From a virus: DNA of 20,019 nt. The stretch lies in UHGV virus genome UHGV-1706396. One strand, given 5' to 3'. This document shows, in pieces, positions 2,545 through 5,412 of the stretch; the first letter of the stretch is position 1, and each line of letters begins with the position of its first letter. The translations under genes were made by a program, and so were the position numbers. The notes below the pieces were generated by a model that was not told where the DNA came from, searched no databases, and saw nothing but the letters and a program-made list of their open reading frames with translations.

Positions 2545-3453
2545 ATGATTGGTAAGTTGTCTGATTCTTTGATTGAAAATAAATACAACGAATTTAGAGA
2601 AGAAATATCTTTACTTTTTGACTATTTAAATCAGATAAATGATACAACAAAGAAAAATATAAAACGTCTTCTAAAAGAAGTGGAGTATGCACAGAATCCA
2701 GATACTATTATTAATATTAATGAAACTATTAAGATTAAGTGTGGCACAACGTTAGCTCGCCATTTATGTTCAAACCCATATACAGGTTCAACATTAGAGA
2801 TAGGTAACAGCGCCATTGATTTAGAAGAAAAGATAAGATTGTGTAATGTTTTGAAGAATAAACAATATCAGTGGGTTATTACTGAAGCCTATGAGTTACT
2901 GGAAGACTATATTGAGGCAATATATGTCTATACTGTATGTGTTCGAAATGATTTCTGGTCCTCAAGTAATTTTGGTAAGGTTGAAGATGATGACATTGGG
3001 AAAGGGGAAGTTTATTACAAATTATTAAAAGCAAAAAGTAACCCATCGAAAAAAATAATTAAAATTTTCAGAAATAAAATACCTGGCTTCAAAGAGATAG
3101 AAATAAACAACAAGATTGGTAAAAACTATCGCTTTAACATCAAGCTAATTGAACTACTAAGACATACAATAGTACACAATAGTGGACGATTCAATGATAC
3201 AGAAAAATTTATAAATAAGGTTTTAGATGAATCTGAAATAAACGGTAAGAAAAGAGTTATTGGAGAAAGAGCTGTTAGAAGTTACATTGCTAAAGTGCAA
3301 GAAGATGATATTGTAATGCTCTTAGAAAGACCATCTGAAATTTTTGGTTCTTTTGGTGGTTATTTTAACAGAGCAAAATTTTTACTAAGTGATATTTTAG
3401 AATACTCACTAATCATTAAAGAAGAACTAAAATCATATCTAGGCAATCATTAA
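2545..3453 (+). CDS. AT-rich accessory protein of unknown function with HEPN-like Rx4H motif; candidate abortive-infection / defence protein
   Basis: 302-aa ORF, markedly lower GC than its neighbours (K/N/I-rich); GAGG RBS 6 nt upstream; R206-H211 motif RHTIVH (nt 3160-3177) fits the HEPN Rx4-6H consensus with a polar residue after Arg; opposite strand to flanking genes; own terminator. Confidence 0.55.
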   Translation: MIGKLSDSLIENKYNEFREEISLLFDYLNQINDTTKKNIKRLLKEVEYAQNPDTIININETIKIKCGTTLARHLCSNPYTGSTLEIGNSAIDLEEKIRLCNVLKNKQYQWVITEAYELLEDYIEAIYVYTVCVRNDFWSSSNFGKVEDDDIGKGEVYYKLLKAKSNPSKKIIKIFRNKIPGFKEIEINNKIGKNYRFNIKLIELLRHTIVHNSGRFNDTEKFINKVLDESEINGKKRVIGERAVRSYIAKVQEDDIVMLLERPSEIFGSFGGYFNRAKFLLSDILEYSLIIKEELKSYLGNH

Positions 3454-3454
3454 C

Positions 3455-3486
3455 AAAAAAAGGGGCCGAAGCCCCTTTGAATTTTG
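3455..3486. terminator. Bidirectional rho-independent terminator between the AT-rich gene and the tRNA cluster
   Basis: Hairpin AGGGGC-cgaa-GCCCCT (3461-3476) followed by TTTGAATTTTG on the plus strand and by a 7-T run on the minus strand (the A-run at 3454-3460). Confidence 0.75.
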
Positions 3487-3552
3487 CGCTGAAAAAAGTG
3501 TTGCTAGGATGTTAGCAAGCTATGGTTAAGAACGTCTGCCGTAATTGTCTAT

Positions 3553-3630
3553 CACAGCGTTGAGCGGTCTGGTTTATGTTAGCGGAGTCTTAATCTGGGT
3601 GATTAAAAGGCCAAACCGCTCAACGCTGTG
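3553..3630. repeat. Long inverted repeat (20-bp arms, 19/20 complementary, 38-nt loop) immediately 3' of the tRNA cluster
   Basis: CACAGCGTTGAGCGGTCTGG at 3553-3572 and CCAAACCGCTCAACGCTGTG at 3611-3630; arm sequence related to the repeat at 4901-5022. Confidence 0.6.
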
Positions 3631-3632
3631 TC

Positions 3633-3719
3633 TGGCGGAGAGTAATGGAATCGAACCATCATCGCTTGCGCAATGGGACGGTTTTCAAGACCGCTTGAGC
3701 ACCATGCTCCCTACTCTCC
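3633..3719 (-). tRNA. tRNA-Ser (anticodon TGA), class II with long variable arm
   Basis: Hand fold of the minus strand: acceptor GGAGAGT/ACTCTCC, anticodon stem GCGGT/ACCGT with loop CTTGAAA, T-arm GATGG-TTCGATT-CCATT, encoded CCA. D-arm is atypical (short loop or 3-nt linker). Confidence 0.65.
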
Positions 3720-3905
3720 GGCCGTTGTGGTGGCCGGTACTGAATCTCCGGCATACGGTGCAGCCAATTAGGACTACGGACGATCACCGCTCGCGAAAGG
3801 GAAGGTTTGCGGCCGCATTTCCCTAACATCCAAGAAAGCTATCGCATCAGTCTGCGAATCCACCACAACGGAAAGAGCATTCACGTCTCGCGTGCCACCA
3901 CGAAT

Positions 3906-3929
3906 GGCAACTCAGAGAGTCGAACTCTG
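3906..3929 (-). other. tRNA-like 3' fragment (T-arm plus acceptor 3' strand) without a recognisable 5' half; pseudo-tRNA or possible att core
   Basis: Minus strand reads CAGAG-TTCGACT-CTCTG-AGTTGCC with conserved G53, T54 T55 C56, A58, C61, but no D-arm or anticodon arm could be folded upstream. Confidence 0.3.
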
Positions 3930-4387
3930 AAAATGCTCTTACCTGTTGTGTGCTGTGTCACTCCCTCCGCTATTACCTGGCTTTGCCTCGACCTTTTAGG
4001 TTGCGTCCGATGATAAACAGGGCTGTCGGAAATTTGTCTGTGACACAGCGATAAGAGAACTCGATGCATTTAAGCCAAGCCCCATATGGGAAGTTCTCTT
4101 ATCTGTTGTGCGCTCCGTTTCGTGGAGCTAACGGCGGGTGAACAGGCCGCACCAGGTTGGACATATTTCAGCGTTATGCTGTTGCAAGAGAGCCAAATTG
4201 TGATGGTCGGTGCTGAACTCCGACACAGGGTTGTAGCAAGCCCCGCAAAGCGCGCACTACTGTAGTTGCGGCACATCAGCCTGTGCATTCACCACAATGT
4301 TGAGAACACTGGTTGTCACGCTGCAACGCAACATTTATTCATAGATTGGGATATGACCCCGTTACGCCAATGTTCTCAATATTATGT

Positions 4388-4463
4388 TGGTGCCGGTTAA
4401 CGGACTTGAACCGCTGACCATTCGCTTACAAAGCGACTGCTCTACCAACTGAGCTAAACCGGC
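4388..4463 (-). tRNA. tRNA-Thr (anticodon TGT)
   Basis: 76 nt: acceptor GCCGGTT/AACCGGC, D-stem GCTC/GAGC, anticodon loop TTTGTAA (27-43 pair mismatched), T-arm AGCGG-TTCAAGT-CCGTT, encoded CCA. Confidence 0.8.
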
Positions 4464-4467
4464 AATT

Positions 4468-4554
4468 TGGTGGGGAGTGATGGAGTCGAACCACCCGAGT
4501 CGCAATGACAGTAGATTTACAGTCTACCCCGCTACCCCTACGGACTAACTCCCC
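4468..4554 (-). tRNA. tRNA-Tyr (anticodon GTA), long variable arm
   Basis: 87 nt: acceptor GGGGAGT/ACTCCCC, anticodon arm GTAGA-CTGTAAA-TCTAC, T-arm GGTGG-TTCGACT-CCATC, discriminator A, encoded CCA. Confidence 0.85.
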
Positions 4555-4559
4555 TAAAT

Positions 4560-4634
4560 TGGCGATGGTGGGTGGATTCGAACCACCGACCAGTTGGTTA
4601 ACAGCCAACTGCTCTACCGCTGAGCTACACCATC
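4560..4634 (-). tRNA. tRNA-Asn (anticodon GTT)
   Basis: 75 nt canonical cloverleaf: acceptor GATGGTG/CACCATC, D-stem GCTC/GAGC, anticodon arm GTTGG-CTGTTAA-CCAAC, T-arm GGTGG-TTCGAAT-CCACC, encoded CCA. Confidence 0.9.
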
Positions 4635-4825
4635 AATTCGGCACTGCCAGTATTTATTACTCAACAGTGCCAATCGCGACGGTTTAGTTTCTGCCAGGAA
4701 ACGCACCGCTACTTGCACTTTTCGTTAGTGCCAGACGCTTTCGACTTCGCTCAATAGTAGAAGGCAAACTCTTTAAGTAGATGATGTTTCTGAGGACAGC
4801 ACCTACTTTGTAATTTATACAATGT

Positions 4826-4842
4826 GATGTATGGAATCATTT
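4826..4842. promoter_or_regulatory. Recurrent motif GATGTATGGAATCATTT (copy upstream of the tRNA cluster)
   Basis: 17-mer identical to 5838-5854 and matching both arms of the 2012-2044 palindrome. Confidence 0.35.
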
Positions 4843-4900
4843 GTTGTGAAAACAGGCACCAATGGCAACAGTGGTTAAACCTACACAACTATTCTGTCTT

Positions 4901-5022
4901 CACAACGTTGAGGCCACTACTCCGATTGAATGTTTGCCCAACATGTTACATATCAACGCTCGCCGGTATCTCTGTGAATAGAACCTTAGAATTGATAAAA
5001 ATGTAATGGCCTCAACGTTGTG
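4901..5022. repeat. Perfect 15-bp inverted repeat pair separated by 92 nt, 5' of the tRNA cluster
   Basis: CACAACGTTGAGGCC at 4901-4915 and GGCCTCAACGTTGTG at 5008-5022; arm resembles that of the 3553-3630 repeat (CACARCGTTGAG). Confidence 0.6.
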
Positions 5023-5098
5023 TGCTGGCTAACCATACCAGCCGGGCTACGTCGCCGCTTTTTAACCCAGTATAAACGACATAATTGAACAAAATGAC

Positions 5099-5207
5099 GT
5101 AACAGAATGGGCGGTCAGTGGCTAAGAATCCGGGAGTCATATGGAGTTGAAAATATACCGACCGCCCATTCTGTTACTTCATCGGAGGGAACACTCATGT
5201 TCCCTCC
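5099..5207. repeat. Two adjacent strong hairpins in an ORF-poor region (18-bp perfect stem with 43-nt loop, then a GC-rich 10-bp stem with 4-nt loop)
   Basis: GTAACAGAATGGGCGGTC at 5099-5116 pairs with GACCGCCCATTCTGTTAC at 5160-5177; GGAGGGAACA-ctca-TGTTCCCTCC at 5184-5207. Confidence 0.55.
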
Positions 5208-5382
5208 TGCGTTCTGCAATCACACTCGCTCAGTGTGTCCCATTTCGGTAACGAGGCTGGAAACTGACCTCGCTGGTGTTTGGCTTATTAGGCTACTGCC
5301 AGATAGACTTCTTCGTTTGCACTTGTATTTAAGTTCAAACAGTCGCGTCTCAACGAAAACAAAGTCATCTTATACACAAAAG

Positions 5383-5402
5383 ATAAGTAAGTAAATACTT
5401 AT
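5383..5402. promoter_or_regulatory. Operator-like palindrome ATAAGT-N8-ACTTAT (copy 2 of 3; flanked to a perfect 7-bp inverted repeat)
   Basis: GATAAGT-aagtaaat-ACTTATC at 5382-5403, just 3' of the 5413-5703 gene. Confidence 0.35.
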
Positions 5403-5412
5403 CAATATGTTT

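Follow-up and report, generated by a model that had tools for sequence, protein, structure and literature searches.

Stems processed by RNase III are known from the stalks of rrn operons, from T7 early RNA and from the metY-nusA leader; transfer RNA (tRNA) 3′ external transcribed spacer (3′ETS) RNAs are exemplified by 3′ETS-leuZ of Escherichia coli; the tRNA cluster of phage T4 includes the stable RNAs C and D (species 1 and 2), structured non-tRNA RNAs that are co-transcribed with the tRNAs; and 5′-terminal stem-loops of the ompA type stabilise messenger RNA. The subject here is a pair of long inverted repeats, hairpins C and G, on either side of the tRNA genes in a stretch of 20,019 nucleotides from the virus genome UHGV-1706396; "the window" below means this whole stretch. 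Both are members of a conserved but unannotated family of hairpins, situated where temperate enterobacterial phages have their tRNA genes, of which no description was found in Rfam, in RefSeq/GenBank annotation or in the searchable literature on boundary sequences, prophage small RNAs (sRNAs), tRNA genes of Stx phages and phage-plasmid hotspots. They are tentatively interpreted, with confidence a little short of even, as the outermost members, at the start and at the end, of a family of RNA stem-loops that are transcribed and punctuate a minus-strand tRNA operon and have a cis-acting role in processing or stability.

4901 to 5022, minus strand: hairpin C, 5′-CACAACGUUGAGGCCAUUAC, 82 nucleotides, GUAGUGGCCUCAACGUUGUG-3′, a 20-bp stem extending to 23 bp
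3553 to 3630, minus strand: hairpin G, CACAGCGUUGAGCGGUUUGG, 38 nucleotides, CCAGACCGCUCAACGCUGUG

The arms of hairpin G (3553-3572 and 3611-3630) are 20 nucleotides long and 38 nucleotides apart, just as a preliminary description of this DNA had it, and are 95% complementary. For hairpin C the same description gave perfect 15-bp arms and a loop of 92 nucleotides; the perfect 15-bp core is there, but it extends to arms of 20 nucleotides with one mismatch (4901-4920 and 5003-5022), and the loop is 82 nucleotides long. The sole mismatch of each DNA repeat is a G·U pair on the minus strand. Hairpin C folds at −46.7 kcal/mol (z −6.7) and hairpin G at −40.1 kcal/mol (z −9.7), and for neither did any of 200 shuffles fold equally well. 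The core CACARCGTTGAG that their arms share is strongly over-represented: allowing at most one mismatch, it matches five times in the window against 0.15 expected, and none of 100 shuffles reached five. The fifth match, at 4293 (CACAATGTTGAG), is part of a further hairpin that abuts tRNA-Thr. On the plus strand, the 20-kb window has nine matches to CACA[AG][CT]G, of which five lie inside 3553-4901.

3633 to 3719, minus strand: tRNA-Ser(UGA), from tRNA calling
4388 to 4463, minus strand: tRNA-Thr(UGU), from tRNA calling and Rfam
4468 to 4554, minus strand: tRNA-Tyr(GUA), from tRNA calling and Rfam
4560 to 4634, minus strand: tRNA-Asn(GUU), from tRNA calling and Rfam
4290 to 4389, minus strand: hairpin D, which starts at the CCA of tRNA-Thr and has the 3′ arm CUCAACAUUGUG
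4044 to 4110, minus strand: hairpin E, CACAACAGAUAAGAGAACU, 30 nucleotides, AGUUCUCUUAUCGCUGUG
3864 to 3950, minus strand: hairpin F, CACAACAGGUAAGAGCAUU, 50 nucleotides, AAUGCUCUUUCCGUUGUG, with the T-arm-like sequence CAGAGUUCGACUCUCUG in its loop

The four tRNA genes of the preliminary description are confirmed, all on the minus strand, but they do not form one compact cluster: the genes for tRNA-Asn, tRNA-Tyr and tRNA-Thr are 4-5 nucleotides apart, and a gap of 668 nucleotides separates tRNA-Thr from tRNA-Ser. Inside that gap, three further hairpins (D, E and F) are built on the base CACARY...RYUGUG. The bracketing repeats are therefore not the special pair that they had been taken for, because they are part of a larger family that occurs among the tRNAs and in other types of phage. 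Hairpin D is 92% identical to a region of P1 annotated as upl/plp, and in P7 and Ro157c2YLVW hairpin E stands directly 3′ of tRNA-Thr.

Relatives were sampled as 80 IMG/VR loci and two Kluyvera loci, fetched via the neighbouring ligase gene, plus annotated phage records; the two Kluyvera loci were the sole return of the genome-contig scan. The repeats, whose conservation the preliminary description had made a test of their significance, are retained with compensatory changes in several genera: both stems are kept in Escherichia, Salmonella, Klebsiella, Kluyvera and other relatives. Almost every relative that covers the site has hairpin C. Its 24 distinct versions show compensatory pairs at stem positions 12, 13 and 19, and 98.1% of the alignment cells are paired, far above slid controls. 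Hairpin G, in 20-22 distinct versions, is 97.2% paired, also far above slid controls, with two pairs changed on both sides; a double compensatory change turns CGUUGAGCGG/CCGCUCAACG into CGCUGAACGG/CCGUUCAGCG, and 14 of 16 aligned variants retain the U·G pair at stem position 17. On the tRNA strand, the non-Watson-Crick pairs of the C stem are G·U and A·C in a ratio of 27:4, and one variant (L044) has four G·U pairs in a single C stem.

The bias towards the tRNA strand extends to the rest of the family. Among the hairpins that trail tRNAs, 35 of 46 distinct ones are more stable on the tRNA strand than on its complement; for the D, E and F types the difference is 4-11 kcal/mol, because these hold 3-6 G·U pairs. 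Hairpin D, with six G·U pairs and arms only 83% complementary as DNA, folds at −34.8 kcal/mol in the sense direction and at −25.3 kcal/mol in the antisense. When independent viral contigs found by the arm pattern were surveyed for tRNAs within 1.5 kb of a hairpin, 64 were on the hairpin sense strand and none on the opposite strand. Several lines favour a structure formed by RNA of the tRNA strand, and of the functions that the preliminary description had offered, RNA processing or structure fits best with the G·U asymmetry on the tRNA strand, the strict co-orientation with tRNAs and the stems of about 20 bp.

A number of observations weigh against this interpretation. Four singleton A·C mismatches occur in C stems, and 11 variants of the G group fold slightly better in the antisense direction. 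The covariation is modest and drawn from related sequences; "compensatory" changes could also arise in DNA, by gene conversion between the two arms of a palindrome, and a single DNA strand folded as a hairpin would give the same strand bias and co-orientation. The arms, in particular those of the GGTAAGRG class, are more conserved in sequence than a purely structural role needs, which points to a sequence-specific partner or to recombinational homogenisation; a stem-loop does not fully explain such conservation and leaves room for a partner of this kind. Finally, a promoter scan found no sigma-70 consensus site on the minus strand of the region from which an operon would be transcribed.

A long-range stalk, like that of rRNA processing, in which the 5′ arm of C would pair with the 3′ arm of G was considered and rejected, as there is no co-variation between the two: C remains CACAACGTTGAGG in the Salmonella/Kluyvera type, where G becomes CACAGCGCTGAACGG with its own internal compensation. 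RNase III processing stems have several features in common with this family. In both cases, duplexes of about two turns on the transcribed strand flank stable RNAs within a long precursor, and pairing is conserved rather than the loop; the duplex length typical of RNase III substrates (about two turns, roughly 20 bp) agrees with 20-23 bp for C, 20 bp for G and a mode of 19-20 bp. In contrast to RNase III stalks, C and G are local hairpins whose arms do not co-vary with each other, and the hairpins keep a CACAAC/GUUGUG base that RNase III does not require.

The spacing between hairpin and tRNA suggests how such stems might act. Hairpin G begins 2 nucleotides past the CCA of tRNA-Ser, and hairpin C is 266 nucleotides upstream of tRNA-Asn. 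Across the family, the hairpin starts between 2 nucleotides inside and 2 nucleotides beyond the CCA wherever the next tRNA is not within 2-5 nucleotides, regardless of whether the preceding tRNA is Asn, Thr, Ser or His. If the region is transcribed as one unit, each hairpin would lie at most about 2 nucleotides from a tRNA CCA end or, for C, upstream in the operon leader. Upon excision of the tRNAs by RNase P or RNase E, the downstream fragment would start with a stable stem and might be shielded from decay that depends on a 5′ end, and the roughly two-turn duplexes might also be entry sites for RNase III. A stable stem with no more than 2 unpaired 5′ nucleotides, as predicted once the upstream tRNA is cut off, is what the ompA type of stabiliser has as well, although the stems of the hairpin family are much longer. 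If the hairpins are signals for processing or stability, tRNAs could be excised from long phage transcripts and the RNA downstream spared.

3459 to 3630, minus strand: terminal unit, consisting of hairpin G, a single-stranded linker, a small hairpin (UUGCUA..UAGCAA), a U-run and the terminator 3478-3459
4843 to 4906, minus strand: follow-on helix after hairpin C, in which GUUGUGAAGACAG (4906-4894) pairs with CUGUUUUCACAAC (4855-4843)

The view of the preliminary description that the repeats are not ordinary terminators is borne out, in that no U-tract follows the stems of C or G (loops of 38-82 nucleotides) and a minus-strand terminator scan placed the only site that ends the tRNA unit at 3478-3459. 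From G to that terminator is a unit of about 170 nucleotides, intact in 33 distinct variants and preceded by tRNA-Ser, tRNA-Asn, a variant with a His anticodon or an open reading frame (orf). Because this unit directly adjoins the last tRNA and has the operon terminator as its other end, processing of the tRNA 3′ end would set free a discrete RNA; hairpin, linker and terminator might thus accumulate as a stable terminal RNA of about 170 nucleotides, a tRNA 3′-trailer RNA. The position (2 nucleotides past the tRNA-Ser CCA, with the end at 3459) is that of a 3′ETS. The unit has no sequence relation to 3′ETS-leuZ, is longer and is headed by a 20-bp stem. GUUGUG is common to the follow-on helix and the 3′ arm of hairpin C, and the helix has a second CACAAC at its end; SSU5, in the alignment, has the helix in the compensatory version AAAGCAGG/CCUGGUUU.

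The preliminary description had also suggested small-RNA genes, which is plausible for the 3′ element as one conserved unit with its terminator. Its build (5′ hairpin, single-stranded linker, U-run, terminator) is typical of an sRNA, and it is conserved as a whole from genus to genus. The loop of G has the motif GACUCCGC, which does not differ among the aligned variants; it is complementary to a sequence that contains GGAG and resembles a ribosome-binding site. The loop of C has the conserved motifs CACAGAG and AUGUUGGG and keeps its orientation. G with its terminator, and possibly C, could accordingly be genes for trans-acting sRNAs whose loop motifs pair with targets or bind a protein. This reading, which applies mainly to G, is judged unlikely: the complementary site GCGGAGTC occurs nowhere else in the window, there is no Rfam match (the hairpins match no covariance model of Rfam 15 even at E up to 10, and only the tRNAs reach threshold), and neither the internal members with their unrelated loops nor the fixed spacing from CCA would be explained. 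An sRNA role of G is compatible with the preferred interpretation as processing or stability stem-loops.

The tRNA content between the repeats, which the preliminary description had proposed to compare among relatives, does vary. In 68 SSU5-like loci, C and G are constant bookends, 240-1417 nucleotides apart, with 0-4 tRNAs between them: Asn-Tyr-Thr-Ser in 30 loci, Asn in 22, Asn-Ser in 10, Asn-Thr-Ser in four, a His variant in one and no intact tRNA in one. The full arrangement of the window is rare (L001 and L025 only). Relative to the window, breakpoints of homology cluster at hairpin arms and tRNA ends (4382, 4369, 4310, 4111, 4104, 4097, 4044, 3879, 3870, 3729 and 3610), and those against P1, P7, D6 and RCS47 are at 4096, 4044 and 3610; P7 has modules in common with the window in another order. 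In phage Cyrano, the spacer between tRNA-Thr and tRNA-Ser is reduced to ACACAATT, which fits a deletion between the two flanking copies of CACAAC. Hairpin C itself is not a junction of the variable region. Since arm sequences are conserved across unrelated modules and phages, they may provide short homologies for the gain, loss, swap and occasional inversion of modules; on the preferred interpretation, this role of the arms as seams is a by-product. If the hairpins are recombination seams too, rapid turnover of the tRNA repertoire would be explained, with consequences for codon supply and for escape from defences that cleave tRNA.

Some of the tRNA genes in these loci are unusual. The gene at the tRNA-Asn position in one locus (L088) was called tRNA-His by ARAGORN, although its leader and trailer are of the Asn type, which suggests a change of anticodon. 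Just after tRNA-Asn, two loci (L079 and L056) have tRNA-Thr-like genes in which about 75 nucleotides replace the anticodon arm, and another (L078) has an acceptor/T-arm pair about 200 nucleotides apart; these could be interrupted or intron-bearing tRNAs or tRNA-like RNAs. In the window, tRNA-Ser(UGA) (3633-3719) scored 46.6 bits against a threshold of 47 with the tRNA-Sec model of Rfam and had no gathering-level match to the general tRNA model. The D6 record notes that tRNAscan left the amino acid of this tRNA uncalled.

Recombination sites delimiting a mobile cassette were the remaining suggestion of the preliminary description. What stands is that gains and losses break at the arms and at CACAAC; a dedicated recombinase or an integron-type site was not found. 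On this view the repeats would be sites for recombination at the DNA level, folded-strand or palindromic and similar to integron attC, at which a recombinase inserts, excises or inverts cassettes of tRNA and non-coding sequence. Between C and G the architecture is indeed highly mosaic, and its topology is that of a cassette plus attC: direct copies of CACAAC flank each spacer, and the inverted GTTGTG forms an imperfect hairpin of 60-120 nucleotides. Integron attC sites likewise are imperfect hairpins of 60-120 nucleotides with conserved ends, variable centres and direct copies of an outer core in a variable array; the hairpins here, at 67-122 nucleotides, fall within the span of about 57-141 nucleotides expected of attC sites that bound exchangeable modules. 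The deletion between direct copies in Cyrano, the precise loss of C in two loci of Klebsiella type (L010 and L081), the inverted C loop in one of the fetched loci (L058 only) and the conserved arms around unrelated loops could all be products of such a system, and a gene for a tyrosine recombinase (810-1913) is 1.6 kb away. However, this 367-residue protein matches a generic integrase domain at 33.7 bits against a cut-off of 434 and matches no IntI model; the ends (A)CACAAC and GTTGTG(A/G) break the Y/R positions of RYYYAAC/GTTRRRY; and the modules are tRNAs and non-coding RNAs, in phages with unrelated recombinases. The identical kind of hairpin occurs in P1-like and lambdoid phages as well, and no recombinase is known to be common to the P1-like, SSU5-like and lambdoid groups. 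With 3-6 G·U pairs and bulges, D, E and F are poor DNA palindromes. A synthetic query with the C loop inverted had no match in the 211 complete E. coli genomes that carry the element; in 210 of these, at least 80% of the query matches in the orientation of the window. All of the rearrangements seen can be put down to rare events of microhomology or of slippage across a palindrome. Dedicated DNA-level sites are accordingly thought distinctly improbable.

The same inverted loop in L058, together with an extended −10-like sequence (TGATAAAAT) in the plus-strand loop, would be expected of an invertible promoter switch, in which the segment between the C arms flips to turn tRNA expression on or off. 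The uniform orientation in the 211 genomes largely refutes a switch, and the loop motifs keep one orientation across genera; the idea is scarcely credible.

The loss of C in L010 and L081 leaves the empty site CACG-CAACGTTG-TGG, and elsewhere C is flanked by the same 8-bp palindrome, CAACGTTG, which is present in both arms. Direct repeats of 8 bp, an "empty" site, an intergenic location, terminal inverted repeats and a size of 67-122 bp might identify a selfish miniature palindrome (MITE, REP or ERIC-like) inserted around tRNA genes without function for the phage. Because the octamer is palindromic and part of the stem, though, a slippage deletion explains the empty site as well as a target-site duplication does, and the "duplication" is not diagnostic. 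Copies within the genome share only the 6-12 nucleotides of their base, many near-identical dispersed copies were not found in the collections searched, C and G are orthologous and fixed in position across genera with purifying selection on pairing, and the orientation relative to tRNAs is as strict as 64:0. Selfish insertion is therefore considered very unlikely.

4196 to 4302, minus strand: tRNA-sized domain after hairpin D, with closing stem UUGUGGUG/CAUCACAA and two 5-bp arms
3722 to 3871, minus strand: tRNA-shaped domain after hairpin F, closed by CCGUUGUGGUGG/CCACCACAACGG

The stem-loop family, to which the preferred interpretation assigns C and G, follows a regular grammar. On the base 5′-CACARY...RYUGUG-3′ stands a stem of 19-20 bp in 51 of 79 members (range 17-24), with loops of 29-79 nucleotides. 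The five copies in the window share only the base of 6-12 nucleotides, and arms of the GGTAAGRG class are nearly identical around at least 12 unrelated loops. The 3′ arm (GUUGUG) is usually followed by GUGAAU, a 5-bp arm with the loop GRCUGA, a variable centre, a second 5-bp arm with the loop AGWUCAGNR, and finally CAYCACAA, which pairs back to GUUGUGGUG; (CAC)CACAAC is always 4-6 nucleotides upstream of tRNA-Ser. The order is thus tRNA-CCA, 20-bp hairpin, tRNA-sized domain, CACAAC and the next tRNA. In the domain after D, the arms are one with the loop GGCUGA (4271-4286) and one of the form GUCGG-AGUUCAGCA-CCGAC; the domain after F stops 2 nucleotides short of tRNA-Ser, and the 3′ arm of F overlaps with the 5′ strand of this domain.

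As a family, the tRNA-sized domains have a median length of 99 nucleotides, and their two small arms co-vary across 124 and 104 instances, respectively. The first occurs as GCACA/UGUGC, GCGCA/UGCGC, UCGCA/UGCGA and ACGCA/UGCGU, and the second as GUCGG/CCGAC, GCCGG/CCGGC, ACCGG/CCGGU, GUUGG/CCAAC and GCAGG/CCUGC. Despite a closing stem, a D-like arm and a T-like arm that co-vary, the domains after D and F were called neither by ARAGORN nor by the Rfam tRNA model. They may be tRNA mimics or substrates of RNase P. The CUS-3 locus (L212, 2640-2852) likewise has a tRNA-sized, cloverleaf-like domain. Near-canonical T-arm sequences (GGGTTCGAATCCC, GAGTTCGACTCTC) appear in some hairpin loops (the hairpin after tRNA-Thr of P1 in L002/L004, L096 and window 3900-3925), which hints that the hairpin family may be derived from tRNA genes.

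Beyond the SSU5-like phages, the arm pattern CACAAC(N)GGTAAGRGYAT, of the class to which the arms of hairpin F belong, was found in more than 120 viral contigs, many of about 40 kb. P1-like phages have related hairpins, and so do lambdoid/P22-like prophages in their Q-holin leader; the G type is essentially confined to SSU5-like contigs, and in the collections searched the family is confined to tRNA regions and late leaders of phages. In the P22-like phage CUS-3, the tR′ terminator is directly followed by a module of hairpin and tRNA-sized domain without a tRNA. This module is on the coding strand of the late-operon leader, in the interval from Q to the holin gene, and has the annotated "boundary sequences" bsq4 and bsq3 on either side. 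The CUS-3 version was found in 338 of 5426 complete E. coli genomes, many of the matches being to the hairpin alone, and was never annotated. The bsq of lambdoid/P22-like phages are likewise short conserved non-coding sequences at module junctions; they differ in that the CUS-3 module is situated between bsq features, and in that bsq have been put forward as linkers for recombination of DNA, whereas for the hairpins the evidence points towards a structure in RNA. The Pas sRNAs of lambdoid prophages, considered because they too occupy the Q-holin interval, were set aside as other elements, having terminators and being almost never on plasmids.

The homologous region of P1 is inside the ban operon and is annotated on the opposite strand as the coding sequences upl and plp. 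In the P1 locus (L002, 2479-3048), the two are placed precisely on top of the hairpin D homologue and the domain that follows it, and plp overlaps tRNA-Thr. Both may be mis-annotated non-coding RNA, and the annotations merit re-examination.

Structured non-tRNA RNAs among phage tRNA genes recall RNAs C and D of T4; unlike those of the virulent T4, the elements described here have a repeated hairpin grammar and are spread across temperate phages. It is conceivable, though rather doubtful, that hairpins and tRNA-sized domains together make up an undescribed and widespread class of phage non-coding RNA module, exchanged at the arms among P1-like, SSU5-like and lambdoid/P22-like phages and serving as tRNA-like processing punctuation or as decoys against defences that target tRNA. 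The spacers of phage tRNA islands are usually annotated as "junk", and here they have a strict conserved grammar that recurs in three groups of temperate enterobacterial phages unrelated to one another.

The window derives from an SSU5-like phage-plasmid of E. coli and shares 96-98% identity with others of this kind, among them p009_B, phage CMS-2020a and phage Cyrano. A non-coding stretch of about 1.9 kb (roughly 5410 to 3459) holds all four tRNA genes and comes downstream of a block of minus-strand genes, DNA ligase among them; the stretch closes at the intrinsic terminator 3478-3459, which is on one strand with the flanking genes. By eye, a weak candidate promoter can be made out on the minus strand, with TTTACT at 5395-5390 as the −35 and TAAGAT at 5372-5367 as the −10 element.

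Beyond the terminator, a plus-strand orf for 302 amino acids (2545-3453), between a glutaredoxin gene and the bidirectional terminator, has a G+C content of about 28-31% and had no NCBIfam match. Its site is apparently a variable slot for accessory genes adjoining the tRNA region, because relatives have other cargo or nothing there. At the other end, about 200 nucleotides of non-coding sequence (5210-5412, minus strand) are near-invariant from E. coli to Klebsiella and Salmonella relatives, with flanking genes just 72-80% identical. This segment opens with the palindrome TAAGTATTTACTTA and has weak tmRNA-like Rfam matches (E 0.01-0.05, far below threshold); it may be a promoter/operator of the operon or another RNA. 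Between it and hairpin C are a long inverted repeat of another sequence family (5094-5182, with 26-nucleotide arms, 92% complementary, and a 37-nucleotide loop) and a G+C-rich 10-bp hairpin (5184-5209) whose sequence is replaced in the Salmonella and Klebsiella relatives.

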